DNA of 64,000 bases from Nitrosopumilus sp. (GCA_965204345.1 OZ241981.1:192001-256000), one strand, 5' to 3'; counted from the stretch's first letter, positions 2,400 to 55,099 are shown. Numbers and translations: made by a program. The notes: generated by a model from the letters alone, not told the origin.

Positions 2400-2855
2400 G
2401 ACACATATGATATGTCGTTGCTGTTATTTGTAATTTGTAATTACTGTCTTTTTTGTAATAATTCAGGCTATTGAATGTGATTAGAACCACCATGGTTTGC
2501 CTGTGCGTTGTTTGTAAAAGTTATTTTAAATAGACATCAAGGTTTTGCATTTTCAAAGCGTGTTGAAATTATTGGTAGTAAGAGAGAGTCCTTTCCGTGT
2601 TTTAAGAGCAAGAAAAAACTAATGACCCCCAAAATTCTTATCCTTTTCAGGTTTTGGCCACAGATACACTGGTAATCAGTCTAGAACCGCTTGGAGCAAT
2701 TGCCAGCAATCAGCTATTTTATGGCAGTAATTTTAATTGAGATTCTGCCTGTTGCAAAAAATACATTATAACTAATCTAATACGTCAAAAAAAATCAGAC
2801 AGGGCTTGATTCTGTCTTAGGAATAGAAAGTTTTAGGTACTGATGATTTTTTTTA

Positions 2856-3827
2856 TTGTTATTGAAGGCAATTTTTGTCGCAATTCTTGCTGTGGGCGTG
2901 CTTGGATATGCGTGGTATTCTGACTTGCTGCCGTTTGCAGCAGATAGTTCTTCTGCGAGGCTCTCCCCATCCATGGAAAGCATCCAACAAATATCTGACG
3001 CGGTTACATCCAAAACCAATCAGATAATTTATTATTCTTTTGAGGATGTTCCTGACGTACCAGATAAGCAGATACCCCTTGATGCATTAAAAAAAGCAGT
3101 TGATACTTGGGAAAGTAATAACCCGCATATGGAATTCATAGAATCATCTAATCCTAACATTGAAATTAAATGGCAAAAATATGCATCATCTACGCATACT
3201 GGTCTTGCAACCTGTAATTCCGTTCTGTTTGGAATTTTAAGCCACTGTGTCTTAGACATTTCAATTGGTGCTAGAGATTGCAATTCAAATTTTGTACAAA
3301 GTGATGAAAACATGGTTGCAAACATCCTGATGCACGAAATAGGTCATGCCTTGGGATTGGAGCATACTGATGAACTTGATAATCTGATGTATTCTACAGA
3401 GTCGCCTAAAGCCTCTTTTAACTCAAAGGGTTATGCCATTCCAGAAAGATTTGAAGGATTATTTGTTGGTCAAAAAACGTTACTGTCAAAAGAAAATGAG
3501 CTGAAATCTGATATTGAATCCCTTGATATTGCAGTATCTCATGAACAGTTGCGATATGATCAATATTACAAACAGTATGAATATTATGATGGCAAAATTC
3601 TATCTTCTGAAGAGTTCAGAAAAGCTGAACTTGCGCATGAGTTGATCAGTGCACAAGTAAAAAAAATCAATGAGTTAATTGCTGAACAAAACGTGTTGAT
3701 TACTGAAGTTAATGACGTTGTAGATCAGCTTGGATGCAATCCAAACTTTGAAATTAAATCCCCTTATCCAAATAACAAAACTAGTCCTACTGCCAATGAT
3801 GCCACTGAAATTCCCATCCAAACATAA
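2856..3827 (+). CDS. Matrixin-family (M10-like) zinc metalloprotease, membrane-anchored/secreted
   Basis: HEIGHALGLEH motif plus Met-turn (NLMY); N-terminal TM; C-terminal coiled coil. Confidence 0.85.
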   Translation: MLLKAIFVAILAVGVLGYAWYSDLLPFAADSSSARLSPSMESIQQISDAVTSKTNQIIYYSFEDVPDVPDKQIPLDALKKAVDTWESNNPHMEFIESSNPNIEIKWQKYASSTHTGLATCNSVLFGILSHCVLDISIGARDCNSNFVQSDENMVANILMHEIGHALGLEHTDELDNLMYSTESPKASFNSKGYAIPERFEGLFVGQKTLLSKENELKSDIESLDIAVSHEQLRYDQYYKQYEYYDGKILSSEEFRKAELAHELISAQVKKINELIAEQNVLITEVNDVVDQLGCNPNFEIKSPYPNNKTSPTANDATEIPIQT

Positions 3828-3841
3828 AATTTTTTCAACAT
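3764..3841 (-). CDS. Possible 25-aa membrane peptide MLKKFYVWMGISVASLAVGLVLLFG
   Basis: Manual translation; basic N-terminus plus one TM helix; overlaps the protease 3' end. Confidence 0.35.
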   Translation of the reverse strand: MLKKFYVWMGISVASLAVGLVLLFG

Positions 3842-4261
3842 TTGTGTTTTGTTATGATCACTGAAATTAATAGTTTAAAATTGAGAAAGTAAGCAAATTT
3901 GATATCAGTTTTCATCGGCCCTTTGGGGGTTACACTTTGGATATCAAACTAGCAATCATCTTACTTTCAATGTTTATGTTGATTATCCTGTCTCAAAATT
4001 CTTAAAATAAAACATGTCTTGATTTTTGGTCAAAAAGGGTTGAAAAAACGATCCATTTTACTTGATTTGCATACCTGAGCCTGCATCTGAAATTCTTTAG
4101 ATATACGCCTGCCTGATATGTGCACGCATTTTCTTTGTTTCATTTGTTGATTAAATGCCGAGTCATCTCTCTCTGATGGCATTTTCTACACCGGTCCTAG
4201 CTTGACCACGCCCAAGTATTGATTTGCCATCAAGCATTATCCGCGTTTAATTTCCAAGGCC

Positions 4262-7985: not shown

Positions 7986-9665
7986 CTGTCTCTGCTAGAA
8001 AAATTCCCGGATCAGTTTACACCTAGAGATATCCAAAAAGAGATCCTCTCTGAGATTGAGGAAAAGTTAAAGTCGGGATTTAAGAAAATAATCCTTTGTG
8101 CTCCTACCGGAGTCGGAAAATCCCTCGTAGGTGCAACTGTTTCTAATTATTTTGACAGTTCTTTTACCGTGACTGCATCAAAGCATCTTCAGGATCAATA
8201 CATCAAGGATATTCCATTTTTAAAACCAGTTAAGGGAAAGCAGAACTTTCCTTGCCTCAAACTAATGTCTGCTGAAAAAGTAGACGATGACAAAAGTGCC
8301 CTAAGGGGGGGATTGACTTGCGACAAGGGCCAGTGCCAAGAGCGGACTGTTAAAAATGGCAAGGATGTTTTTGAATCCTGTAAATTCAAGCCTACCATTA
8401 GGCAGGTTGAGGATAATGCAACTGATGCTACCTCGTGTCATTATTATCTGCAAAAATATGAGGCTCTTGCATCAAAGCATTCCCTGTGGAACTATCATGC
8501 ATTTTTTACAATAATGAAATTTAACAAGAAACTCTTTGAGGAATACCTGGATAGAAAGATAACCGTGTTTGATGAGGCACATAAGATTGAAGATCAGATT
8601 ATCCAGTTTGTCGGATTTGACATCTTTGCCAGCCAGATAGATGAGTGCGACCTAAGCTCTGAAAAGTATGACTTTGCTGATTTGGATTCGATGATAAAAT
8701 TAACTGAGGATATGGCTTACTCGTATGCCAAAAAGATTAGGGATATCAAGCAAAGCGCCCTCTTTCAGAACAGTCCTGATTACAAATTGATTACAAGCCT
8801 GGAACGCCGTTATGACCGTTCTGCACAGGCAAAAATCGACATCATGTCTGATAAAAATAACTTTGTGGTAAATGACCCCGTCAAAGACTTGGATGGTAAT
8901 TTTAGAATTATCTCTGTTAAACCAATCGATGTTTCAAAATTTGCAAGCTCCTTTTTTGAAACTGATTATCAGATTTTCATGTCTGCCACCATTGACAAGT
9001 CCAGTTTTTGTGAAAATATGGGGTTATACCCTGATGATGTTGCGTTTGTTGATACCCCAAGATCCCCCTTCCCCATTGAAAACAGGAAAGTTGATCTTCT
9101 AAACATTAAAAGGCTAAGCTACGGCTCTACTGAAGAGGACGAGCTTGAGGTAATCAGAGCCATTGACAGAATAATGAATGAGCATTCTGATGAGCGCGGC
9201 TTAATTCTGACTTCCTCCATTCCCAGGTGCAAAAAAATTATCAGACATCTTTCTCCCAAAAACAAGCAAAGGACTAGGCTATGTCATAGTAAAAATCAGG
9301 ACGGGAAAACACAGGATGAGATAATTTCAGAGCATGCATCAGACCCTGCCGGAGTCTTGCTTTCTTCCTCGCTTTGGGAGGGCGTTGATTTGAAAGATGA
9401 CCTGTCTAGATTTCAGATTATAGCAAAGGTTCCCTATCCCAACTATACTGAAAAAAGAACCAGAACAAAAATGAACAAGTTCCCTTTGTGGTATACCTCC
9501 CAAACCCTCACCAAAATTTTGCAGGGATTTGGACGTTCAATCAGAGGCGATGCTGATTGGGCCAAAACATATGTTTTGGATACTGCGGTAAACAATGTTT
9601 TTTTCAAAGGGCAGCAGATGATTCCAAAGGCATACCATGATGTATTGGGAATGGACGAGATCTGA
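7986..9665 (+). CDS. DinG/XPD-like SF2 helicase (helicase C2 domain); probable CTG start
   Basis: In-frame extension upstream of 8169 carries TPRDIQ (Q motif) and APTGVGKS (Walker A); DEAH, SAT, EGVD, QGFGRSIR motifs. Confidence 0.85.
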   Translation: MSLLEKFPDQFTPRDIQKEILSEIEEKLKSGFKKIILCAPTGVGKSLVGATVSNYFDSSFTVTASKHLQDQYIKDIPFLKPVKGKQNFPCLKLMSAEKVDDDKSALRGGLTCDKGQCQERTVKNGKDVFESCKFKPTIRQVEDNATDATSCHYYLQKYEALASKHSLWNYHAFFTIMKFNKKLFEEYLDRKITVFDEAHKIEDQIIQFVGFDIFASQIDECDLSSEKYDFADLDSMIKLTEDMAYSYAKKIRDIKQSALFQNSPDYKLITSLERRYDRSAQAKIDIMSDKNNFVVNDPVKDLDGNFRIISVKPIDVSKFASSFFETDYQIFMSATIDKSSFCENMGLYPDDVAFVDTPRSPFPIENRKVDLLNIKRLSYGSTEEDELEVIRAIDRIMNEHSDERGLILTSSIPRCKKIIRHLSPKNKQRTRLCHSKNQDGKTQDEIISEHASDPAGVLLSSSLWEGVDLKDDLSRFQIIAKVPYPNYTEKRTRTKMNKFPLWYTSQTLTKILQGFGRSIRGDADWAKTYVLDTAVNNVFFKGQQMIPKAYHDVLGMDEI

Positions 9666-9677
9666 TTTTCCCGGCAA

Positions 9678-9875
9678 TTATCTTCTTTGTGCGCATCCGC
9701 ATTTTACATACGCTATCTTAAACTCCCCGTCTGTCTTGATGTTGTGTGAGATTGGCCTGCGGCATTGCTGGCACTCGTTGAATCCAAAATATTCTTCCAC
9801 CTGAATCATTTTATACTCCCATGATTTTCTCTCTTCGTTCCAGTACACCGAATTAATTTCAGATGGACCATCCAT
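9678..9875 (-). CDS. Small Cys-containing conserved protein
   Basis: CQQC...CGC. Confidence 0.65.
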   Translation of the reverse strand: MDGPSEINSVYWNEERKSWEYKMIQVEEYFGFNECQQCRRPISHNIKTDGEFKIAYVKCGCAQRR

Positions 9876-9912
9876 GATGTGTACTGTAGGATCAGTTTCA
9901 TTAATTAATTTT

Positions 9913-10128
9913 CTATGGGTTCAGGTTTTTAAAATCCAAACACTTTGAATCAAATTCGCCCAAATACTGTCTTGCATTAATTTTGGAATCTATAATGTAT
10001 AATTCGCAGGTTTCCGAATCAATCATCGGCCTAGAGTTATCATTGCTTATGAACTGAATTACCAGTATTGCCACCAGAATTACTATCAACATCATGGCAA
10101 ATTTGCTTGAATAGATATCCATGATCAA
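9913..10128 (-). CDS. Small membrane protein
   Basis: One TM helix plus two Cys. Confidence 0.6.
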   Translation of the reverse strand: MIMDIYSSKFAMMLIVILVAILVIQFISNDNSRPMIDSETCELYIIDSKINARQYLGEFDSKCLDFKNLNP

Positions 10129-18850: not shown

Positions 18851-19849
18851 TTATTGGTAGTAGGCATTTTTGACAGGTTTGATATCATCTTGGCCAGACG
18901 GAAATTCGGTATCTGAGAGATATACAAACCCGTTATTAATTGACGTGTATGCTACGGCTGATACAAGACCGTGAGATCGTGACATCTTAAAATATCCATA
19001 GTCATACGTGTCCTCCCCTGAAAGCAGGCTAAGATCATATACATGGCCGGAACTCGACCTCGCATGGTCATCAGCATCATAGACTATATCTTTCAAATCA
19101 TTTATTTTCATCTGAAAAGTTAATGGTGATTGGTTGTATTTGATATCAGGAATATACATGCCCTGAGTAATTCTGAGTGGTTTATAGTCGTCATTTATGT
19201 AGATATGGCCTTGTTCTAGACCCCCACCCATTGCCTCATAATTTGTAGGATAGTTGATGTCAAAGTCGGTATCACAGTTATGATCCCAGAATTCATCAGT
19301 TCCATATTGTGAAGGATATATCAAGCGTGAGGCGTTAACATAAGTATCCCAGTATTCTTTATTGTTTATTGGATCTTCTACAAATGAAAACGATGCAGTG
19401 ACATTGAACACTTCGCCAACTCTGACTTTGTTTGGAATCTCAAGGGTTATCTCATTTTGGAAAAGGCAGTGAGAATGCCAACTCAGTGGACCCAATTTAA
19501 TTGATTCAGGGATTGGTGGTAACGGTGATTTGATTGTAATTATTTGAGGGACAAACTCGCCTGGTTCTTCTTTCATGATTGCTTTATCTGTCTTTGCTGA
19601 TTCCTCCAAGACTGCTTTCCATCCAGTCCTATCAAGCATCTTGATGGACGTATCCAAAGTTACGCAGACGGGTCTTTCGCTTTGTGACCATGTCATAATT
19701 TTCTCACCATTGCACATGATCTTCTCCAACTGCACGTTGTCTTTGAGCTGTTTTAGAGGAGGATGAAGATATTCAGATTCTGCCAGTGCAGGCACTAATG
19801 TCATTACTGCTGCCAGGATTGCAAGTCCCAACAGTGTCGCTTTGATCAT
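18851..19849 (-). CDS. Secreted thaumarchaeal protein with PPLKQ..C..P.CV domain
   Basis: Signal peptide; domain similar to 5147..6511. Confidence 0.7.
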   Translation of the reverse strand: MIKATLLGLAILAAVMTLVPALAESEYLHPPLKQLKDNVQLEKIMCNGEKIMTWSQSERPVCVTLDTSIKMLDRTGWKAVLEESAKTDKAIMKEEPGEFVPQIITIKSPLPPIPESIKLGPLSWHSHCLFQNEITLEIPNKVRVGEVFNVTASFSFVEDPINNKEYWDTYVNASRLIYPSQYGTDEFWDHNCDTDFDINYPTNYEAMGGGLEQGHIYINDDYKPLRITQGMYIPDIKYNQSPLTFQMKINDLKDIVYDADDHARSSSGHVYDLSLLSGEDTYDYGYFKMSRSHGLVSAVAYTSINNGFVYLSDTEFPSGQDDIKPVKNAYYQ

Positions 19850-20454
19850 TGTGTAATATGGGTAATCAACGGTATTAACTGTGATCTATGGTACAGGTGG
19901 TGGTGTAAACCCTTGATAACATCGATTAGTTGCGTTGATTGTAAATACGAAAAGGGCCAAGAAATAATAAAATTCAGATTTGGCAATACAAAAAAAGGCA
20001 TCCATAAGAGTCTGTCATTTGTGATTTAGACTGTATCCAAATTTTTACATCCCAAGAGCACATGACAAAGAGACGATCTATAGTTTATCAACAAAAAGTT
20101 GACAGATAAAAAATCAAGCAAGAAAATTAAGAATCTGTTTCTTTCAGGCTTGGTCTCTCTTGTTTGTTTGTGTCTCCATCTTTTTCTGATTTACCACAGA
20201 TTTTTGATCATTGCTTCCATGATTGATTTGCATCCTTTTGAGCATGCAGATCTGCCAATTTTTCTTAAATGATCTCTCAAATCTGAATTTTGTATTCATT
20301 TTTCTACCCAAAGTGCTCATTTTCTGATTTGCCTGCAACTATTGCATCAAAAATACCGGCATGTCAGATCCTGCAGTGACATGTTTGATGAAGATAAACT
20401 GATCTCCTTATAAATTGGGTAATCATCCAAGAGCTTAAATATATTCAGAGAATC

Positions 20455-36656: not shown

Positions 36657-37214
36657 TTGCATGCAAACAAAAAGCCAAAGATTAGAAATGTGGTGTGTAC
36701 TGCCGATCTTAAGCAAAATGTGAATGTCCCCAAACTATCAAAACTGTCTTGTGGAATCTATGATCAGGCAATATATGGGGGGCGGTGTGGTTATGTCAAA
36801 ACCCCAGATATGGAAGGCAAAGTCACCATATTTCCTAGTGGAAAGATGATCTCAGTTGGTGCCAAATCTACAACAAATGCAGTCAAACAGCTCAACCACG
36901 CAAAATTTCTTCTAGTTCAGGAAAAATTGATTTCAGACATTAAATTAAAACCCAACATAAGAAATATTGTTGCGACCATAGATGTTGGGCATATCATACC
37001 AATAGACAAACTATCACTCAGCATTTCTGGTTCAATTTATGAACCTGAAACTTTTCCTGCACTTATTGTGAAGGGGCTAGATAGTTGTAGTTTTCTTGTG
37101 TTTGCCTCAGGAAAGATAGTGATTGTAGGTGCAAAATCTGTAAAAGAGACAAACACTTCATCATTTGAGTTGTTACAAAAACTGAATAGTTTTATGAAAC
37201 ATGAAAAAGATTAA
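36657..37214 (+). CDS. tbp: Divergent TATA-binding protein paralog
   Basis: Two TBP repeats: NVVCT...IFPSGKMISVGAKS and NIVAT...YEPETFPAL...VFASGKIVIVGAKS. Confidence 0.85.
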   Translation: MHANKKPKIRNVVCTADLKQNVNVPKLSKLSCGIYDQAIYGGRCGYVKTPDMEGKVTIFPSGKMISVGAKSTTNAVKQLNHAKFLLVQEKLISDIKLKPNIRNIVATIDVGHIIPIDKLSLSISGSIYEPETFPALIVKGLDSCSFLVFASGKIVIVGAKSVKETNTSSFELLQKLNSFMKHEKD

Positions 37215-38124
37215 TTCTGTATTTACTAACCTTCACATTAATTTTTAGCAGTTATAAAATTATGCTATTTTAGTTTCTAAACTAATCAAATGTTGTCTTT
37301 TCTATATCACATGAAATCATCTAGATGTAACGCATGTACAGTATGATTTGGATTTAAAGTTGAACATCAGCAAAGAGATGTGGATTCTCTCATCAAATTA
37401 GTTCTTTAATTTTATTACTAATAAAGTTCTGTTAGCAGAAATATGATTTTTTCAGTATCTAATTTGTGGATTATTATTTTGTCTTATTCCTTTTATAAAA
37501 TTCTTATTTCTCCTGACATTAATTTTGGTAAAAGCGAATCTCGAATTTGCATCAGATTAGATATCTGTTTATAATTATTTTTTATTTCTTTAAATAATAT
37601 CTTGAGAATATTTTCTAATTGTGACTGAGTTTTTTGCTTAGGAAGTACAAACTTCAGATTATACATATTATTTTGATTTATTTTTGGCTGTACCGCTCCC
37701 GTTACAATATGATTTACATTCGTATTTTTTAGATAAACATACAATAATTCATTAGATATTTTTTTCCCTTTCAAAACATGAGCATGATTGTTTACCCAGA
37801 ATTTTTCCCAAACATATTGTAAAATTGGATGCCCTTTCTCATCGATGACTGAACCGTCCTCACCCATCAAAACATAAGTCCCATCAAAAATAAAATCATC
37901 AACATAATCTAAGATCTTAGTTGCACCATAATAGGGATAACATCCTTTTTTGGCAAGTCTTTCAATACTTGATAAGGGAATTCGTTTAGAATCAAAATTT
38001 TTTACAACTTCTTTTAATTTCTTTACTTCCCAGCCCTCAGGTATTTCTATCCCTAATTCTTCATTGTAAACCATCTTTCCTCCTGATGATTTGTATGGAT
38101 TATCTTTTTCATTTGGAAATTCAT

Positions 38125-38185
38125 AGTCAACAAACCATGATTTGAAGACTATGCAAACAAGTCAACAAACCATGATTTGAAGACT
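38125..38185. repeat. 26-bp direct repeat (38125-38150 / 38160-38185) with 9-bp spacer; candidate recombination core site
   Basis: agtcaacaaaccatgatttgaagact x2. Confidence 0.92.
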
Positions 38186-38226
38186 GTCTGGGCGATTTGT
38201 TCGAGGATTTTGTTCTGTTTTTGAAG
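38160..38226 (-). repeat. Left arm of ~67-bp inverted repeat (partner 45584-45649)
   Basis: Reverse complement matches 45584-45649 except A5 versus A4. Confidence 0.95.
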
Positions 38227-38740
38227 GTTTTCTATTGTCGTGTCAAGTGCATCTAATTTAGCAATAATTTTGTCTTGTTTATCTAAAGGAGGTAAATGGA
38301 TTTTAATTTCATCAAAGGTTGACATAGTAATTGTATCAAATACAGTTCCATTGGAAATTTGGGTATACTTATTTTTCAGATTTTTTAAAATATAAAATAA
38401 GTAAAGAGGTCTGACGGATTTAGGAAAAACTTCTAAAGCATAACATGATTGGTTACAACTCATTTCTGATGGAAGGATGCATAATGATCCAACAGTTCCC
38501 CTAGATGAGATAATAATAGTATGCTTTTTTAGTACTTTTGCAGAACTATTGCTAATTCCTTCTGATGTTATTTTTCTTTCGGTATCATAAATATACCTAC
38601 CATTAATTTTTGTGATATCTGTTGGAGTTATCCATTTGATATTTCCGTTCCAATATTCTGGTACTGATGTTTTTGGTGTGCCACTTAAAATTATTTTACA
38701 CATTTCAGAAAGTTTCTTACTGTTTAATTCTTGAATCGGT

Positions 38741-41700
38741 TTAACTGTCAAATCCAACCTCTTGATAATTATTTTCCGTCTGTTGCATAATCACAGGAAT
38801 CACTTTTTCAATCTCGTCAGTTGGGAAATCTTCTTTTATTAATATTTTAGTTACTCCAACTCGAATTTCGGCTTTGACTTGTTCTTGATTTAACCAATCA
38901 ATCTTTAGATTTTTCTTCAGATAATCAACAACATCTATTGCAATCTTTCGTGCATCGATGTCATTTTCCAGATATTCTCTGCCCATCCTAATGATATCAT
39001 AAAATGCAATTTCCTCATTAGTCATTTCTAGTTCATCCGTTCTTTTTGACTCATCAGTAATATCAGATGCTACCTTTTCAAATTCTGGATATAGTGTGTC
39101 AAAATCTTCAAATTTTCCATGATACCTTGATAATGTCTTTTCAATTCTTTCCTGGAAAGTCTTTTGTTTTGAGATATTCCCTTTTAGTCGCGCCTTAATT
39201 GCATCATCAAGTAACTTGTATGCCAATTCCATCTTGAGATTTTTTTGGGAAAATTTCTTTATCTTTTCCATGTATTCCTTGTTTAGATCAATTTTTTCAT
39301 CATCGTACTTGATGTCATAAAATCGAATATTCTCATCAGCATCAATTGCCTCTTCCACCAAATCCCGGATTGCATCTTCCTTTTCAGGAGGTGTGTAAAG
39401 TATTCCTGCGACTGATTTTGACATGATTCTACGCATTAGCTGGAAGAATCTCAAATCATCTTCTACTTCCTGGCATGCCGGATGTGGCGTACACACAGCA
39501 TATGCTTTGGTCAGTTCTGCAACATTTTTTATGAATTGCTTTCGAACTTCTTGATCATCTAGAATTTCTTCTATTGCATCATCAAGGTATGAGCCTTGTC
39601 TTCTCTGTGAATACGGTTTGTCAACCCCAATATCTACAGTAAAAAAGCTACATAATTCCAAGTGCTTCTTTTGCATGTACAAAACAATCTCCTCAGTTGG
39701 TATCATTGCGCCCCTAACATCGGATTCATTATATGATCGAAACGCAGATTTTAAATCATCAGTAATTCCAATATAGTCAATAATCATTCCACGTGGTTTG
39801 TCCTTGTGAACGCGGTTGACACGGGATATTGCCTGGATTAGGTTATGGTCCCGTAGTAGTTTGTCCACATACATTGTATGTATTACAGGTGCATCAAATC
39901 CTGTCAGATACATGTCACAAACAATTAGTAATTCCAAATCACTGTTTTCATCTTTGAACTCTCTTACCAATTCTTCCATTTCAGATTTTGATTTGTAATG
40001 TTTTGATACTGTTTGTTCTCTATTCTTTTTTTCTTCAGATGCATCATCTGCAAGTGGTTTTGCTAACCCGGAAATCACACAAGTACATTTTGGAGCATCA
40101 GGAATTTGAGAAATTAAATCAGCATATCGAGCAGCTGCTAGTTTTGTTGATGTTGCAAGCATGGCCTTTCCTTTGAGTGTTTTTTGTTTTTCTTTAAAGT
40201 GACAAACCAAGTCTTTTGCAATTACCTCTAGTCTGTCAGGATCCTCCAGCATTGTTTTTAGCTCGGACCATTTTTTTGAAAGGGACTCTATTACATCAGG
40301 ATCTAAATCTTCTGTAATCTTATTAAAATCAGCACCAATCATTTTGTTTTGCAAGTGGAGTTGGACTAGTCTGCTTTGACAGGTAATTTCTACAGTGGCC
40401 CTGTCTCGTACTGCATCGCTAATTCTGTAGGCAGAGAGAACATCTCCAAATACGTGCGTAGTTGACTTGTCTTCTTTCTCAATTGGCGTGCCTGTGAAGC
40501 CAATTTTAAGCGCATTTGGAAGTGCTCTTTGCAGGTTTTGAGCCATGGTCTTGTACTGTGAGCGGTGTGCCTCATCAGCTATTATGATGATGTTTCTCCT
40601 CTCAGAAATTAATGGATATTTTACCATCCCTTCTTTTTCGTCTTGTGTTGTTTGGAATTTCTGAATTGTTGTAAATATTATCTTTCCAGCCGGAACTGCC
40701 AACTTTTCTCTTAAATCAACTATGGAATCAGCTTCCAACATTGCAGTCTTTGGTTTTGGATATGGAAATCCTGCAACCTTGAAGAAATTTCCCAGCTGGC
40801 CATCCAAATCCTTTCTATCAGTTAGGATTACAAAGGTTGGATTTTCCAATTGTTTTATTTGAGAAACAATATTTGTATACAAAATCATTGTTAGTGATTT
40901 ACCACTGCCTGTTGTATGCCAGATAACACCAATTTTATTATCTCCACTTTGTGGATAAACTTCTAATGTTCGTTTAACTGCTGCCTTAACTCCGGTGTAC
41001 TGGTGTTGTTGTGCAATTTTTTTAATTGTTTTACTTCCATCTGATTCGTATTCAGTGTAGTTTTGAATTATTTCCAATAATGATTCTTTGGTTAACATTA
41101 GATGTTGCATCATCTCTAATCTGTTTGCAACTGTCTTGTCAGGATCTTCAGGGTCATTCCAATCTGAAAATCTTTCAAAGGGCGCAGTCATTGTTCCATA
41201 TCTTGCATATATTCTATCGCTGATTATCAAAAATGAAACATAGTTGAATAGACGAGGGATAAATTTTTGATAGTTAGTAATTCCCAGTTGCTTGTATGCT
41301 GAAACAATATCAGTTGATGAGTTTGTTGGATCTTTGTACTCTAAAAGAACCAAAGGCAACCCATTTACAAATATAATGTGATCTGTCCGTCTTTGTTCAT
41401 GTTGCTTAATGATTAGTTGCCTAACTGCCAAAAAGTCATTGTTTTCTGGAACCTCAAAGTCTACTAGTTTTATGGCATAGTATCTGGTCTGACCCTCTGA
41501 TTGATATGGCACCTTGACACCTGCAAGCAGCATTTGGTGAAACTCTCGATTGTTTTCTATCGTAGTTGGATTTGTCAGTGATTTTACCTGGTTTATTGCA
41601 GTTGTGTAGACAGTTTCAGGTAAATTTGGGTTTAATTGACGGATTTTTGTGCCTAACCGGTCTAGTAAGAGAACGTCACTGTAGTTTTTTCGCTCATTGT

Positions 41701-41800
41701 TTAGATCAGTTCCTTCCAATATTTCGTAACCCAACTCTTCGAATGTCTTATGAGCTGGTAGTTCAACTAATTCAATCTCATTTAGTTCTGATGGGGACAT
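38741..41800 (-). CDS. hsdR: Type I restriction endonuclease subunit R
   Basis: D.IIFVNGLPLVLLEYK, WHTTGSGKS, DEAH, FTGTP, LTGFD, QAISRVNR. Confidence 0.96.
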   Translation of the reverse strand: MSPSELNEIELVELPAHKTFEELGYEILEGTDLNNERKNYSDVLLLDRLGTKIRQLNPNLPETVYTTAINQVKSLTNPTTIENNREFHQMLLAGVKVPYQSEGQTRYYAIKLVDFEVPENNDFLAVRQLIIKQHEQRRTDHIIFVNGLPLVLLEYKDPTNSSTDIVSAYKQLGITNYQKFIPRLFNYVSFLIISDRIYARYGTMTAPFERFSDWNDPEDPDKTVANRLEMMQHLMLTKESLLEIIQNYTEYESDGSKTIKKIAQQHQYTGVKAAVKRTLEVYPQSGDNKIGVIWHTTGSGKSLTMILYTNIVSQIKQLENPTFVILTDRKDLDGQLGNFFKVAGFPYPKPKTAMLEADSIVDLREKLAVPAGKIIFTTIQKFQTTQDEKEGMVKYPLISERRNIIIIADEAHRSQYKTMAQNLQRALPNALKIGFTGTPIEKEDKSTTHVFGDVLSAYRISDAVRDRATVEITCQSRLVQLHLQNKMIGADFNKITEDLDPDVIESLSKKWSELKTMLEDPDRLEVIAKDLVCHFKEKQKTLKGKAMLATSTKLAAARYADLISQIPDAPKCTCVISGLAKPLADDASEEKKNREQTVSKHYKSKSEMEELVREFKDENSDLELLIVCDMYLTGFDAPVIHTMYVDKLLRDHNLIQAISRVNRVHKDKPRGMIIDYIGITDDLKSAFRSYNESDVRGAMIPTEEIVLYMQKKHLELCSFFTVDIGVDKPYSQRRQGSYLDDAIEEILDDQEVRKQFIKNVAELTKAYAVCTPHPACQEVEDDLRFFQLMRRIMSKSVAGILYTPPEKEDAIRDLVEEAIDADENIRFYDIKYDDEKIDLNKEYMEKIKKFSQKNLKMELAYKLLDDAIKARLKGNISKQKTFQERIEKTLSRYHGKFEDFDTLYPEFEKVASDITDESKRTDELEMTNEEIAFYDIIRMGREYLENDIDARKIAIDVVDYLKKNLKIDWLNQEQVKAEIRVGVTKILIKEDFPTDEIEKVIPVIMQQTENNYQEVGFDS

Positions 41801-41835
41801 TTTGATTTACATATTGGATCAGATTCAATCATAAT

Positions 41836-43182
41836 TTAAGTTTGAGTTGTTTTTATTTTTGTATTTTCTAGTACAGATAAAATGGTATAAAGAATGTTTT
41901 CTAGTCGTAAGAGGTGGCTTTGATGCTGGTTCATATCTTTTTGAATGCTACATACTGAACGTTCAATGAATGTCAAATTACATGGTTTGTCATTTACAGT
42001 CTTGTTATTCTGTGTGGTAGAATGTTTCTTACATGAATAGTTGGTAGAGCCTGTAAGGAGATTTATTCTCTCAGATGCTTTTGAGAATTCGTGGATGCTT
42101 GATTCAGGATATAATACAAATTGTTTTTCGTAACTATCCTTTGGACTGTGTCCTATTATGTGATCTGCAACATCTGGCCTGCATCCTGAATCAATAAGTG
42201 TTGATTTGAGAAGATCTCGCATTCGATGTAATCTGTATTGATTTTTGGTCTGAAGGTTTGGCACATGGTTTTGTAGTTTGGATCTTGCAGCCAACTTGCG
42301 AAATCTTTTGTATATCCAGTTAACTGTGATTGGATTTCCCTCCGTATCTACAAACAACGCATTGTCAATTTTGGGTTTATCCTGTCTTGTCTTTAGATAT
42401 TCAGTTATTGCTACAACTGCATCAACATCAAGAAATCCCGTATGCATGAATCCTGTCTTTACCCTGACAAGTGGAATAGGAATCGGTGTGTTATTCAAAT
42501 TCCATGATTCGGGATTCTCAGATCTAAAATGCTTGAGAAGGCACTCCCATACCTCAAAATTAAATCTGTCTACCAGTGTTGAACTATCTAGTCCTCTCTG
42601 AAACTTGCACAAAAGTACAGCTTTCTCTATTGGCTGTATGTCATTGACGGTTAGAATTCCCCAAAGATCTTCAATGGTAAACAATTGATCATGATGTTTT
42701 TTCTCATTTCTGTTGATTCTGTGTTTGAATTGAAACGTAATGTCGGACTCATTTTCCCTAAAAAATGATCTGATGGAATACATGGCAATTTTTGTAGTGG
42801 ATTGTTTTCTTACAGATAACATTTCTGCCAGGTATTTCTTGATCAAGTGTGCAAAATCTGCCTTGTTGGCATAGTCTTTTCTGCTGAGCTCAAGCAAATG
42901 TTCTATTCCTGCAAGTTGTGTAATGGTTTTATGCTGTTGCAAGATGTTTGTATCTACTTGTATCGGTACAACAAACTGAAATTCCTTGTTTAAAAGCCAC
43001 TTGTGAAATCCCAATAATCCATATGTGTATGCATCCCTTGTACCGCCATGTCGTGATTTACCCTTTATGTTTTTTGTATTGGTACCACTCAACTGCTGTC
43101 TCCAATATTTTACAGATTCAAGTTTACAAAAATCATCAAAAGACATATTTGTATAATTTGGTGTGCCTGCAAGTTTTTTCAA
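41836..43182 (-). CDS. Tyrosine recombinase/integrase
   Basis: RVKT, HRMRD (HxxR), IIGH...Y C-terminal motifs. Confidence 0.85.
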   Translation of the reverse strand: MKKLAGTPNYTNMSFDDFCKLESVKYWRQQLSGTNTKNIKGKSRHGGTRDAYTYGLLGFHKWLLNKEFQFVVPIQVDTNILQQHKTITQLAGIEHLLELSRKDYANKADFAHLIKKYLAEMLSVRKQSTTKIAMYSIRSFFRENESDITFQFKHRINRNEKKHHDQLFTIEDLWGILTVNDIQPIEKAVLLCKFQRGLDSSTLVDRFNFEVWECLLKHFRSENPESWNLNNTPIPIPLVRVKTGFMHTGFLDVDAVVAITEYLKTRQDKPKIDNALFVDTEGNPITVNWIYKRFRKLAARSKLQNHVPNLQTKNQYRLHRMRDLLKSTLIDSGCRPDVADHIIGHSPKDSYEKQFVLYPESSIHEFSKASERINLLTGSTNYSCKKHSTTQNNKTVNDKPCNLTFIERSVCSIQKDMNQHQSHLLRLENILYTILSVLENTKIKTTQT

Positions 43183-43461
43183 GTCATGTCAGACTCTGAA
43201 TCTTTGAATAAAAAATACACTGGCAAAACAAGTGATCATATCAATTATTGTTGGATCTGTTGTTATTTTTTATATTGATATTCTCACAATATATGATTAG
43301 ATATGGGAACTGTATTACTTGATATTTAATTCACATTTGTTTCAACAACCATAATGATTATAATATAGATATGATGGTTTGTTATTGGATAAAATTTGAT
43401 ATGCCAAAACTAATCATGGTAACAGTAGGATATTTCAAAGGGTAAAATATGCAATAAAGAG

Positions 43462-45021
43462 ATGGCAATAAAAAAACAAGATCAGACACTTGAAGACAAA
43501 CTTTGGGATACAGCAGAACTATTAAGAGGAAAGGTATCTCCAACTTCATACAAAGACATTGCATTAGGTTTACTATTTCTAAAATTCATTTCAAACAGAT
43601 ATGATAAAAGACGGGCAGAAATTGAAAAGGAAACCAAGGATTTATCAGAGAAAGAAAGAAAATATCTGCTAAATCTAAAGGATCAGTACACAGCAAAGGG
43701 TGTCTTTTACCTCAAAGAAGGAGATAACTGGAATGACTTGACAAAAATGGCATCAAGTGAGAAAAACCTGGCAATAAAAATTGATGAGATGATTCAGGAG
43801 ATAGAAAACGACAATCCTGACTTGGAAAATGTGCTGCCTAAGGTTTTTGCAGGCTCTGGCATTCCAAATGATAGTTTACAGCAATTAATTGAAACATTTG
43901 ATACGATACCCACTGACGAAATTTCTAAAGATCACTTTGGGCAAATCTATGAATATTTCTTGAGAAACTTTCACAAAAAGATTGGTCAAAAGGGTGGAGA
44001 ATTTTTCACACCAGAATCCATTGTGCAGTTGCTAGTTGAGATTATTGAGCCATATGAGGGAATCATCTATGATCCAACATGTGGTTCAGGCGGAATGTTT
44101 GTGCAAAGCAAAAAGTTTCAGGATGCACACAAAGACAAAAGCAAAAAGGGAACTTCAATTTATGGAGTAGATTCTCAACAAGACATTTGGCGAATTGCAA
44201 AAATGAATCTCACAATGAGGGGAATTGAGGCAAAAAATATCAAAAATGCAGACTGTTTACTGGACCATCCATTTGAAAAAGTAAAGGCAAACCGTATCTT
44301 GGCTAATCCGCCATTTAACATGGGAGAATGGGGACATGAAAAATTAGCCAATGATGCAAGATTTGCAAAGTACGGGATGCCTAGTAATGGAAAACCAGGT
44401 GGAAACTATGCATTCATGTCTCATATGATTCATCATCTGGATGAAAAAGATGGCAAGCTTGGATTGGTATTAGCCAATGGTTCAATGAGTGCAGGTGGAA
44501 AAGAAGGAGACATTAGAGAAAAACTAGTAAAAGATGATTTGATTGATTGTATGATTGCATTACCAACCAATCTGTTTTACACAGTCACAATTCCTGCATG
44601 CCTTTGGTTTATCTCAAAAAATAAAGATGATAAAAAATCAAGAAAAAGAAATGGCGAAACTCTATTCATTGATGCAAGAAAGATTTTTACCCCTGTTGAC
44701 AGGGCACACAATGAATTATCCGAAGAACAGATTCAAAAGATTGCTGGCACTTATCGTTCATTTATCGGAGAGAAGGGACATCCAAAATACAAAGATAAAG
44801 CAGGTTATTGTAAGGCAGTAAAAATTTCAGACATTGAGAAAAACAATTTTGTTCTAACTCCGGGCAGATATGTTGGTGCAGAAGAGATTGAAGATGACGG
44901 AGAGCCATTTGAAGATAAAATGAAACGATTGACTACTGAATATGCAAAACTTTCAGAAGAATCTAAGAAATTAGATAAAGAAATTCGTAGAAATTTGAAG
45001 GGGATTGGTTTTGAAATCTAA
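43462..45021 (+). CDS. hsdM: Type I R-M methyltransferase subunit M (m6A)
   Basis: GEFFTP, DPTCGSGG, ANPPF, LTPGRYVG. Confidence 0.96.
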   Translation: MAIKKQDQTLEDKLWDTAELLRGKVSPTSYKDIALGLLFLKFISNRYDKRRAEIEKETKDLSEKERKYLLNLKDQYTAKGVFYLKEGDNWNDLTKMASSEKNLAIKIDEMIQEIENDNPDLENVLPKVFAGSGIPNDSLQQLIETFDTIPTDEISKDHFGQIYEYFLRNFHKKIGQKGGEFFTPESIVQLLVEIIEPYEGIIYDPTCGSGGMFVQSKKFQDAHKDKSKKGTSIYGVDSQQDIWRIAKMNLTMRGIEAKNIKNADCLLDHPFEKVKANRILANPPFNMGEWGHEKLANDARFAKYGMPSNGKPGGNYAFMSHMIHHLDEKDGKLGLVLANGSMSAGGKEGDIREKLVKDDLIDCMIALPTNLFYTVTIPACLWFISKNKDDKKSRKRNGETLFIDARKIFTPVDRAHNELSEEQIQKIAGTYRSFIGEKGHPKYKDKAGYCKAVKISDIEKNNFVLTPGRYVGAEEIEDDGEPFEDKMKRLTTEYAKLSEESKKLDKEIRRNLKGIGFEI

Positions 45022-46281
45022 AACTATTCGAGAGTTTAAAGAAACTGAAATTGGTAAAATCCCTACAGATTGGGAAGTAAAAAAATTGGAAGAATTACTT
45101 TTTATCAAAGGCAGAATAGGTTGGAAGGGATTAAAAAAATCTGAATTTGGAAAAGAAGGAATAATCATTATCAACGGTCCTCAAATAAAAAATAATAAAG
45201 TAAATTGGAATCAGTGTTTACGAGTTCCTAAATGGAGATATGATGAATCACCGGAAATATCTGTTAAAGAAGAAGATATTCTAATGACCAAAGATGGCAC
45301 AATTGGTAAAACAGCTTATATTGAAAACATTCGTGAATCTGCTACTTTAGCTTCTGGAATATTTTTAATCCGAAGTATTTCTGAAAAACTAGATCAGCGT
45401 TTCCTTTACTTGTATTTTAATTCTCAATTTTTTAGCAAATTAGTAGAAAGTAGAATTGAAGGTTCTGTCATTCCTCATCTTTATCAACGTGATATTATAC
45501 AACTTTCTATTCCTTTACCCTCAATTTCTGAACAACAGTTGATTGCAAAAATCATCTTAAATATTGATTCAAAAATTAAAAATCTTCAAAACAGAACAAA
45601 ATCCTCGAACAAATCGCCCAGACAGTCTTCAAATCATGGTTTGTTGACTATGACGGGATAACCGAGTTTGAGGATTCGGAGCTGGGTAAAATTCCAAAAG
45701 GATGGAAAGTAGTTAAAATTGGTAGTATATGTAATACATTTGGAGGAGGTACACCATCTACCACAAATCAAGATTATTGGAATGGATGCATTCATTGGCT
45801 TGTTCCACGAGATCTTACTAATTCAGATAGATTATTTTGTACATCTTCTGAAAGAAAAATCACTGAATTAGGATTAAAAAATTGTTCATCACAATTACAT
45901 CCTGAAAATTCAATTTTCATGACGTCGAGAGCTACTATAGGCGCATTTACTATTAATCGAATACCACTAGCTACAAATCAAGGATTCATTGTAATGAGAC
46001 CAAATAATCCAAATCATCTGTATTACCTATTTCTTAATTTTGTTAGTAGAATTGATGAATTTATCAATCATGCAAATGGTAGTACTTTTTTAGAAATTAG
46101 TAGAGGTGATTTTAGACAATTATTAATTGTTATTCCTCCTTCATCAATTCTAGATATATTTCATAATAAAATAAAACCGTTATTTGAGAATAGGTTTGTT
46201 AATGAAAAAAAAATTACGTCTCTTACAAAACTACGTAATATCTTACTGCCAAAACTAATGTCAGGAGAAATCAGAGTATAA
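45005..46281 (+). pseudogene. hsdS: Type I R-M specificity subunit HsdS-B, frameshifted by 1-bp loss in an A tract at 45588-45591
   Basis: Adding one A gives NLQKQNKILEQIAQTVFKSWFVDYDGITEFEDSELGKIPKGW... open to LLPKLMSGEIRV*. Confidence 0.9.
45584..45649 (+). repeat. Right arm of inverted repeat; contains 26-bp core at 45624-45649
   Basis: cttcaaaacagaacaaaatcctcgaacaaatcgcccagacagtcttcaaatcatggtttgttgact. Confidence 0.95.
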
Positions 46282-46921: not shown

Positions 46922-47024
46922 TTTTGAGACAAAACTGTTTCACGTAAATTTAACACATTTACTGGATGTGACTTTGAGGGTTTTTGATAATTTTACAGAA
47001 AATTCAGATCACATAAATTTAACA
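46922..47024 (-). repeat. Dispersed ~103-bp repeat, inverted copy of 60026-60129
   Basis: Manual alignment, roughly 85% identity; two TGTTAAATTTAyGTGA boxes. Confidence 0.85.
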
Positions 47025-47066
47025 TCTTTACTGGATGCACTCATCTCCAAATTATTGAGATAGTAT

Positions 47067-54499: not shown

Positions 54500-54576
54500 G
54501 CCGAGGTAGCTCAGCCTGGGAGAGCACTCGGCTGAAGACCGGGCTGTCGCTTGTTCAAATCATGCCCTCGGCACCA
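54500..54576 (+). tRNA. tRNA-Phe(GAA), CCA encoded
   Basis: Acceptor GCCGAGG/CCTCGGC, anticodon loop CTGAAGA, TTCAAAT T loop. Confidence 0.95.
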
Positions 54577-54727: not shown

Positions 54728-55099
54728 ATGGCTGAAAAAAAGACAGTAAAGAAAGATGCAAAAAAAGATGCAAAAAAAGCACCTGCAAAGACCAGTAAAT
54801 CCAAGGCAAAAACTGCCAAATCCAAGGCAAAGACCAAAAAAGTACCTGCAAAGACCACAAAAGCACCTGCAAAGACCACAAAAGCACCTGCAAAGACCAG
54901 TAAATCCAAGGCAAAGACCAAAAAAACAAAGGCAAAAACTGCCAAATCCAAGGCAAAGACCAAAAAAGCAAAGGATGAGTCAATTGGAGACATGGGCATA
55001 GTCATAGTTGATGATGATATTGAGATTGACCAGGAAAAAGTCAACGAGGAAAGGCGGGCATATCTTGAGGAATCCCGCTCTCAAGAGGCATTTGATTAG
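54728..55099 (+). CDS. Lys/Ala-rich histone-H1-like repeat protein with acidic tail
   Basis: KAPAKT / KSKAKT repeats. Confidence 0.75.
   Translation: MAEKKTVKKDAKKDAKKAPAKTSKSKAKTAKSKAKTKKVPAKTTKAPAKTTKAPAKTSKSKAKTKKTKAKTAKSKAKTKKAKDESIGDMGIVIVDDDIEIDQEKVNEERRAYLEESRSQEAFD

Follow-up and report, generated by a model that had tools for sequence, protein, structure and literature searches.

A candidate recombinase-linked invertible hsdS switch with a conserved 35-bp stop unit in a Nitrosopumilus locus for Type I restriction-modification

A Type I restriction-modification (R-M) locus with two oppositely oriented specificity genes (hsdS) and a tyrosine recombinase gene of its own was analysed in DNA from Nitrosopumilus sp. 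The window, i.e., the whole stretch examined, comprises 64,000 nt (GCA_965204345.1 OZ241981.1:192001-256000), and all coordinates are window positions unless another locus is named. It lies in contig 1 of a genome (G000) of 2.12 Mb in nine contigs; the host genus is labelled g1. On balance, the locus is probably an invertible hsdS switch linked to its recombinase. The two hsdS genes share a perfect inverted repeat, one of them is interrupted by a 35-bp unit carrying an in-frame stop codon, and gene content, repeat and unit are conserved in related genomes. The gene order proposed in an earlier note on this DNA (hsdS-A, hsdR and recombinase leftward; hsdM and hsdS-B rightward) was reproduced by open reading frame (ORF) listing, Pfam and NCBIfam, giving the following features (TRD, target recognition domain):

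37493-38757, minus strand: hsdS-A, interrupted by the 35-bp unit
38741-41800, minus strand: hsdR, 1019 aa, with PF04313, PF18766, PF22679 and PF11867, and TIGR00348 at 584 bits (cut-off 285)
41836-43182, minus strand: tyrosine recombinase, 448 aa, with PF00589, co-oriented with hsdR and 35 nt upstream of it
43183-43461, no strand: AT-rich divergent intergenic region of 279 nt, read as holding presumed promoters
43462-45021, plus strand: hsdM, 519 aa, with PF02384 (1e-98) and PF12161 (9e-23)
45005-46281, plus strand: hsdS-B (TRD1-B, central region, TRD2-B), with PF01420 on both halves and an assembly frameshift at an A-run

Two operons thus diverge from a single intergenic region, recombinase-hsdR-hsdS-A on one side and hsdM-hsdS-B on the other, with both hsdS genes facing outwards. 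Each hsdS overlaps the end of the gene upstream of it, as had been described before; the overlap was 17 nt in both cases (hsdS-A start at 38757 with hsdR end at 38741; hsdS-B start at 45005 with hsdM end at 45021). All four TRDs matched PF01420 and were mutually different, in agreement with the earlier observation that the two genes have different TRDs. The components of a Type I system were all present: HsdR with a nuclease N-terminus and an SF2 motor, an HsdM N6-adenine methyltransferase (which scored 187 against TIGR00497, under the equivalog cut-off of 243), and HsdS with two TRDs and a central conserved region. Three features of invertible hsdS loci were found as well, namely an inverted hsdS pair with different TRDs, inverted repeats inside hsdS, and a recombinase encoded in the locus.

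The shared sequence and the interruption of hsdS-A were resolved into the following elements, in which P denotes a core site:

38160-38226, minus strand: arm A of the inverted repeat, encoding the central conserved region of hsdS-A and holding the inner copy of core P (38160-38185)
45584-45653, plus strand: arm B of the inverted repeat, with the one core P that hsdS-B has (45624-45649) and 4 nt matching hsdS-A past its unit
38125-38150, minus strand: outer copy of core P, a direct repeat of 38160-38185, running in frame into TRD2-A
38151-38159, minus strand: 9-nt spacer of the 35-bp unit, the last T of which forms an in-frame TAG (38149-38151) with AG of the outer core
38149-38757, minus strand: proximal half of hsdS-A (TRD1-A and central region), PF01420 at 7.8e-31, with a TTG start and ending ...FKSWFVDLFA-stop
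37493-38149, minus strand: distal half of hsdS-A (TRD2-A and C-terminal conserved region), PF01420 at 1.6e-19, stop-free over 218 aa (listed ORF, 37493-38074)

The inverted repeat encodes the central conserved region of both hsdS genes (...LQKQNKILEQIAQTVFKSWFVD). Positions 38160-38221 and 45588-45649 were 100% complementary over 62 nt, with 4 nt more beyond a 1-nt indel; this substantiates the repeat of about 67 bp (38160-38226 with 45584-45649) reported in the earlier note. It was present in only two copies across the 2.12-Mb genome. A second pair of inverted arms, missed previously, joined 38121-38150 to 45624-45653 (30 nt, 100%). Core P lies at the end of the shared repeat and is a 26-nt near-palindrome, composed of a 10-nt arm, a 6-nt centre (TCATGG) and another 10-nt arm. 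Within the repeat, 0 of 22 codons differed between hsdS-A and hsdS-B, while in the C-terminal conserved block (LLPKLMSGEIR) 4 of 11 did so, synonymously; therefore, the identity of the repeat exceeds what the protein would require. Elsewhere, a stretch between recombinase and hsdM (43360-43383) showed a weak inverted match to 38129-38152 (24 nt, 75%) and resembled the TRD2-side core arm; this may be chance or a recombinase binding half-site.

The 35-bp unit in hsdS-A consists of the second 26-nt core copy (38125-38150, identical to 38160-38185) and the 9-nt spacer (38151-38159). It creates the TAG at 38149-38151 and a frame shift of +2. The gene is thereby split into ORFs of 202 aa and 193/218 aa, with the TRD2-A half open solely in another frame than the TRD1-A half. 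The expectation of the earlier note that both hsdS genes are expressed was not upheld, hsdS-A being cut by a conserved in-frame stop unit.

The stretch was compared with public sequencing runs, four of the eleven listed being used in the form of k=31 Logan contigs: X1 (a sponge metagenome, study P1), X2, and X6 and X7 (organism A, study P3). In the assembly, the A-run at 45588-45591 of hsdS-B has four As and the corresponding run in hsdS-A has five; this causes a -1 frameshift in hsdS-B with a stop at 45659-45661. An extra A behind 45587 was found at full depth in X1 (31.7/31.7), X6 (129.7/129.7) and X7 (130.6/130.6), and because three runs agree on this, the frameshift is probably an uncorrected assembly error at the edge of the repeat, presumably a place where polishing often fails. 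With the extra A, hsdS-B would most likely be intact in a single frame, and the repeat therefore becomes 67 nt of perfect identity. The repeat arms and the unit were unchanged in contigs of independent runs (X6, records 17-21; X7, records 25-29; and X1, from another study, where a near-identical copy of the locus occurs in the sponge metagenome). Record 18 of X6 (106 nt, mean depth 187.6) spans 38121-38226 without difference, and arithmetic from its depth placed the unit-specific words at about 119-124, i.e., single-copy. In X7, the collapsed repeat node of 71 nt had a depth of 266, about double; the mean depths of whole contigs in that run were 130.6 for the inner one and 170.5 and 142.2 for the outer ones. 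The inner contig (38197-45612, 7417 nt) occurred in X6 and X7 and ended at the repeat, as a result of which orientation is unreadable from these contigs. Coverage by X2 was confined to parts of the stretch and had a depth of 2-6. The loose ends that X1 and X2 showed at 38765 and 45076, like a joint in X1 from 45705 to 46226, are most simply attributed to other strains with other TRDs.

These contigs also bear on the explanation that assembly artefacts gave rise to the repeat, the duplicated 35 bp or the frameshift. The four-A run in hsdS-B, contradicted by three runs, is a point in favour of that explanation, which was accepted for the frameshift alone; for the repeat and the unit it was ruled out by the independent contigs and by recurrence of the unit in five other genomes, leaving it hardly credible as an account of the locus. 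The condition that the earlier note had named as one refutation, evidence of the repeat being an assembly join, was thereby excluded.

Related loci were then compared, and are arranged as follows:

G333 (locus L023): hsdM and an intact hsdS1 rightward, then a TATA-box-binding protein (TBP) gene rightward, a split hsdS2 and an hsdM fragment leftward, and recombinase and hsdR rightward
G321 (locus L033): intact hsdS1 leftward, diverging from recombinase, hsdR, hsdM, PIN gene and a split hsdS3, all rightward, with TBP leftward
G303 (loci L159 and L171): hsdR and recombinase leftward, diverging from an intact hsdS rightward, then TBP' leftward, and a split hsdS and part of hsdM leftward

In four of five contexts examined (the window, G333/L023, G321/L033 and G303/L159), hsdR was preceded at a distance of 35-160 nt by the recombinase gene, both being on one strand. 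The hsdM and hsdR of G333 were 87-88% identical to those of the window; in G321, identity was only 35% for hsdR and 45% for hsdM, yet the adjacency of recombinase and hsdR was kept. Within genomes, the repeats were identical at 62 of 62 positions in the window (67 of 67 with five As), at 98.7% over 77 nt in G303 and at 99% over 114 nt in G321, which had a further inverted repeat of 275 nt (96%). Identity of the repeat was 97-100% within the genome for three of four loci, as against 75-86% between genomes. The greater likeness within genomes points to continuing exchange between the inverted copies. The closest relatives were about 83% identical in hsdR DNA and their TRD2s were not orthologous; therefore, no recent flip can be read from relatives. 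Of the layout that the earlier note had suggested seeking in other genomes, the recombinase-hsdR adjacency and the inverted hsdS pair did recur, while a counterpart in the opposite orientation was not shown, the relatives being too diverged.

The stop unit was conserved in related genomes. In all four loci with two hsdS genes, one was intact and the other carried a 35-nt unit. Four variants of the 9-nt spacer were distinguished across G000, G333, G321, G322, G329 and G303, and all of them kept the 35-nt period and the in-frame TAG or TAA, whose T closes the spacer and whose other two bases open the next core arm. The unit pattern was found in 6 of 401 family genomes, all of genus g1 (0 in the reversed control), and viral contigs gave 0 matches to it. 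The unit was flanked by two open half-genes in the window and in G333, of about 200 codons each, in DNA of 30% G+C. The interrupted hsdS of G321 had an open TRD2 half (206 aa); its TRD1 part was a 124-aa ORF, and the first core copy had TGA in place of W. Relative to the recombinase-hsdR anchor, and in the same topology, G333 had the unit in its proximal hsdS and G303 in its distal hsdS. When the orthologous hsdM end, TRD1 and central region of G303 and G333 were aligned, identity was 83.7% over 789 nt and the likeness ended exactly at the end of the core.

Two further genomes, G329 (L167) and G322 (L168), contained the unit with no recombinase match (E <= 1e-90) and no TRD1, hsdM or recombinase within 20 kb; only short N-terminal remnants of hsdR were seen in L168. 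Each had two different TRD2 cassettes placed head to head. The junction of the pair was a palindromic hybrid of the core, its 6-nt centre flanked left and right by the TRD2-side arm, and was followed by one unit in G322 and two in G329. Such junctions are the product expected if a crossover at the core centre had removed the inner block of a locus like that in the window, and it is for this reason that the 26-nt core was interpreted as a crossover site. In G329, the TRD2 pair is flanked by inverted copies of an IS4/5-family insertion sequence (IS) at L167 8257-9133 and 10717-11592 (DUF4096 plus DDE; 90-95% alike), in the manner of a composite transposon, and so other histories of this pair are possible.

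The recombinase matched PF00589 at 33.6 bits (cut-off 27.1) and the XerA equivalog model weakly. An AlphaFold2 model built with 21 relatives (mean pLDDT 77.2, pTM 0.51) was compared with PDB using Foldseek, and matched XerA (4a8e, E 2.9e-6), Tn1549 Int, lambda Int, XerD and Cre over both domains with a probability of 1.0; a profile search of PDB sequences gave 0 matches. The model thus predicts the catalytic-domain fold of tyrosine recombinases together with a core-binding domain. H319-x-x-R322, H345, Y351, Y358 and several Arg residues (R196, R240) were invariant in 21 sequences and are candidate catalytic residues. A broad thaumarchaeal family with 34-47% identity to the protein was found in 28 of 200 family genomes and accounted for 53 of 56 genome loci and 80 of 80 metagenome loci, and all of the nearest relatives found were thaumarchaeal. 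A close clade, 52-65% identical to the window recombinase, was restricted among species representatives to 4 of 150 genomes of genus g1 (G321, G333, G303 and a partial copy in G324), against 0 of 302 genomes from 26 other genera; the metagenome scan produced 80 loci, all at most 44% identical and none belonging to the close clade, and the core motif was absent from all 80. In a FastTree phylogeny of 60 recombinase sequences, from which L033 was dropped by the ORF-length filter and metagenome loci were excluded, the close clade was nested within thaumarchaeal integrases, with the window, L023 and L159 sharing a node (support 0.955).

From these observations the following switch can be proposed. 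A crossover between the inverted cores would flip a block of about 7.4 kb, containing TRD1-A, hsdR, the recombinase gene, hsdM and TRD1-B, and the locus's own tyrosine recombinase would be the most likely catalyst. After the flip, each TRD1 would be joined to the other TRD2, creating a new bipartite target for methylation and restriction. The 35-bp unit would end translation just past the central region in one hsdS copy and, since one copy is always stopped in this way, a single full-length HsdS would be made at a time; read from its sequence, the present state of this genome would be hsdS-B on and hsdS-A off. Depending on whether the interrupted copy recombined at its inner or its outer core, the unit would end up in one gene or the other, and through this choice all four TRD combinations could be displayed, one at a time. 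The inversion proposed in the earlier note was thus partly sustained, by the conserved recombinase-hsdR linkage, the homogenised repeat and the crossover-like junctions; its view of both hsdS as full, expressed genes was not. A more specific and rather doubtful proposal is that the unit is a portable stop cassette between two crossover sites, at which a single recombinase could, depending on the site used, exchange the TRD2s and also transfer the stop between the hsdS genes, with occasional excision of the enzyme genes. The near-symmetric centre (CATG) might let sites recombine in direct alignment, excising recombinase, hsdR and hsdM as a circle; the core of the intact copy would recombine with the inner core of the interrupted copy, and the inner block would be lost, leaving a scar like those of G329 and G322. 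If so, the enzymatic core of the R-M system would move as a cassette and insert itself into TRD2 pairs already in place.

Several observations limit the case for a recombinase-linked switch. No opposite orientation was observed, though the k=31 contigs, in which no strand-changing joint was listed, break at the repeat and are powerless either way on inversion; the repeats of G333 were only 88-89% identical; and hsdS-A may be a pseudogene. Others of this kind would favour a horizontally acquired defence island, of which the recombinase is the integrase and the R-M genes are cargo, with the repeat maintained by conservation and occasional gene conversion in the central region of hsdS, hsdS-A decaying, and no programmed inversion. 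Base composition fits such an island, being 29-38% G+C over approximately 36.5-47.5 kb and about 40-45% upstream and 36-41% downstream. The wider family is integrase-like: relatives at 34-44% identity were often some 400 nt away from a contig end, in the manner of integrated-element integrases, and hsd genes were present within 10 kb in 6 of 80 distant metagenome loci. Published work lists Type I R-M genes among the cargo of thaumarchaeal integrated elements (PMC6563490). The G333 and G303 loci show decay or rearrangement in the form of hsdM fragments and IS elements, and G324 (L160) carries a close-clade partial recombinase (match to residues 107-390) with no hsd gene within 20 kb. This explanation was nevertheless considered unlikely. 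No att-like direct repeats of at least 16 nt flanked the island in 28-58 kb (seed 13; diverged or short att sites would escape), and the sole tRNA in the window, tRNA-Phe (54500-54576), is 11 kb away; an integrated element was therefore unsupported by the att-repeat search and by tRNA position. In four of five contexts, the recombinase gene sits within the R-M locus with hsdR directly downstream, even where that gene is 35% identical. The length and stop of the unit persist through four spacers, next to half-genes that stay open (in G321 the TRD2 half; in the window and G333 both halves). Copies of the repeat resemble one another more closely within a genome than between genomes.

Inversion might also proceed by general homologous recombination over the 67-nt repeat, the recombinase serving island mobility or excision of the enzyme block. 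Perfect identity over 62-67 nt may suffice for this, recombinase-independent inversion has been reported for pneumococcal spnIII (PMC6620402), and the orphan TRD2 pairs are compatible with an excised inner block. Yet the G329 and G322 junctions, instead of being scattered over the repeat, fall inside a 26-nt near-palindrome with an arm-centre-arm geometry like that of tyrosine recombinase sites, the homology that G303 shares with G333 ends at the end of the core, and the recombinase-hsdR linkage is conserved, all of which make this route improbable. Still less credence was given to the unit as a programmed split, which would produce a half-size HsdS (TRD1-A plus central region) that dimerises and recognises a palindromic target alongside HsdS-B, giving two specificities at once. 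The stop does come four codons past the central motif in all spacer variants, the TRD1-A half retains its hsdR-coupled start, and a truncated HsdS with altered specificity is on record for NgoAV (PMC7394358). However, a programmed split leaves unexplained why exactly one copy has the unit in four of four loci and why the TRD2 half behind it is open; moreover, the TGA for W in the first core copy of G321 would yield a half-protein without the end of the central motif. The recombinase-linked switch was retained as the probable account of the locus.

Other genes and repeats were recorded in the vicinity of these loci. A TBP paralog stands beside or inside each of them, and in the window is described by the following entry:

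36657-37214, plus strand: TBP paralog, PF00352 (2.3e-30), convergent with hsdS-A, inside the low-GC island

It matched the NCBIfam TBP models below their cut-offs. The other copies are at L169 12537-13076, L170 6337-6888, L023 4010-4624, L033 18961-19500 and L159 12046-12303, and in L169 and L170 the gene is between hsdR and hsdS. As a companion of R-M loci, the TBP paralog might control their expression. In G321, a gene with a PIN_12 domain (PF16289, 1.6e-16; L033 16427-17416) lies between hsdM and the interrupted hsdS, and a separate, second Type I system occupies L033 1626-7444. The G333 locus contains a DDE transposase (L023 6077-7000) and three copies of an element of about 1.4 kb with no Pfam match (2630-4030; 8528-9944, inverted; 18972-19900), one inverted pair of which is 96-99% alike.

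The window genome has a second Type I locus, L169 (G000:C1:66000-85999), with a variant, L170, that constitutes contig C3 (10.6 kb). This locus also has two inverted hsdS genes, with repeats 82-94% identical and a different tyrosine recombinase of 308 aa; its order is Nre, hsdS and orf229 rightward, followed by hsdM, hsdR, TBP, hsdS and recombinase leftward. When C3 was compared with L169, the flanks matched in reverse and the TBP/hsdS segment on the same strand, which means an inversion of the inner segment with respect to the flanks. C3 contains an inverted repeat of 755 nt (99%). Elsewhere in the window, 29-nt repeats at 46940-46968 and 47009-47037 (69 nt apart, 90% alike) precede a 170-aa ORF without a family match; all four runs had a loose end at 46975 and a short contig of double depth, as expected for a collapsed tandem repeat. 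At least seven tandem copies of a 21-nt unit were found at 54775-54984, just downstream of tRNA-Phe.

How Type I specificity is switched by DNA inversion is understood from work on host-associated bacteria. The survey of bacterial invertons in PMC7672463 reports 92% of them as host-associated and describes six invertase clades (PsrA, TvrR, BfiA, EfiA, MfiA and HvsR); in PMC9881135, archaea were by design not scanned. Phase variation, inversion and shufflon are absent from the text, so far as available, of a review of archaeal R-M systems (PMC11033074), and a literature search by title or abstract returned nothing relevant on hsdS inversion in Nitrosopumilus; this is consistent, supplementary tables aside, with the statement in the earlier note that no hsdS shufflon has been described in Thaumarchaeota. 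A switch in a lineage present in a sponge metagenome would fit the R-M enrichment reported for sponge Thaumarchaeota (PMC7848895). If correct, the proposed switch would extend a mechanism of bet-hedging defence and epigenetic variation to ammonia-oxidising archaea. With a defined site of 26 nt and a dedicated recombinase whose family is otherwise known for integrases, the locus would provide a testable recombination system, and movement of the unit, if it occurs, would explain how a cell avoids having two specificity subunits at once.

A parallel in layout is offered by the hsd loci of Mycoplasma pulmonis, in which two inverted hsdS genes flank hsdM and hsdR and the invertible block carries the enzyme genes. 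In hsd1 and hsd2 (vip and hrs sites; HvsR), several alleles arise by recombination within hsdS, as proposed here (PMC5149525, PMC7672463). There, HvsR is encoded outside its target R-M loci (PMC7672463), whereas here the block itself includes the recombinase gene, with hsdR directly downstream; the M. pulmonis host is bacterial, and the portions of text consulted describe no frame-breaking unit, whereas the present host is archaeal and one hsdS carries the stop unit. The SpnIII/cod system of Streptococcus pneumoniae (ivr, PsrA/CreX) resembles this locus in having its own tyrosine recombinase and inverted repeats in hsdS, and its exchange of TRDs alters the methylome (PMC7672463, PMC4948785). 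In SpnIII, one expressed hsdS swaps with silent, promoterless partial copies, and hsdR and hsdM are outside the invertible DNA; in the window, both hsdS genes appear translationally coupled to hsdR or hsdM, silencing would be due to the 35-bp stop unit, the block holds hsdR, hsdM and the recombinase gene, and the recombinase, of 448 aa, comes from a family of thaumarchaeal integrases.

The inverting Type I systems of a REBASE survey (PMC7394358) likewise have differing hsdS duplicates, inverted repeats, often a recombinase, and one functional frame, and 'archaea' does not occur in the main text of that paper, so far as it was available. Their second hsdS is described as silent for want of a start codon and promoter, while hsdS-A has a coupled start and an internal unit that brings a stop and a frameshift. 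The integrases of thaumarchaeal integrated elements (PMC6563490) belong to the same broad protein family as the recombinase, with relatives 34-47% identical in Nitrosopumilaceae; the word 'inversion' has 0 occurrences in the available text of that paper. Unlike those elements, the present locus has no att repeats or adjacent tRNA, and its recombinase gene is between hsdR and hsdM, not at the edge of an island. The 35-bp stop unit was not found described in the literature consulted. The kind of system is well known from bacteria, and what is new here is the lineage, Nitrosopumilus, the clade of recombinase and the stop unit.

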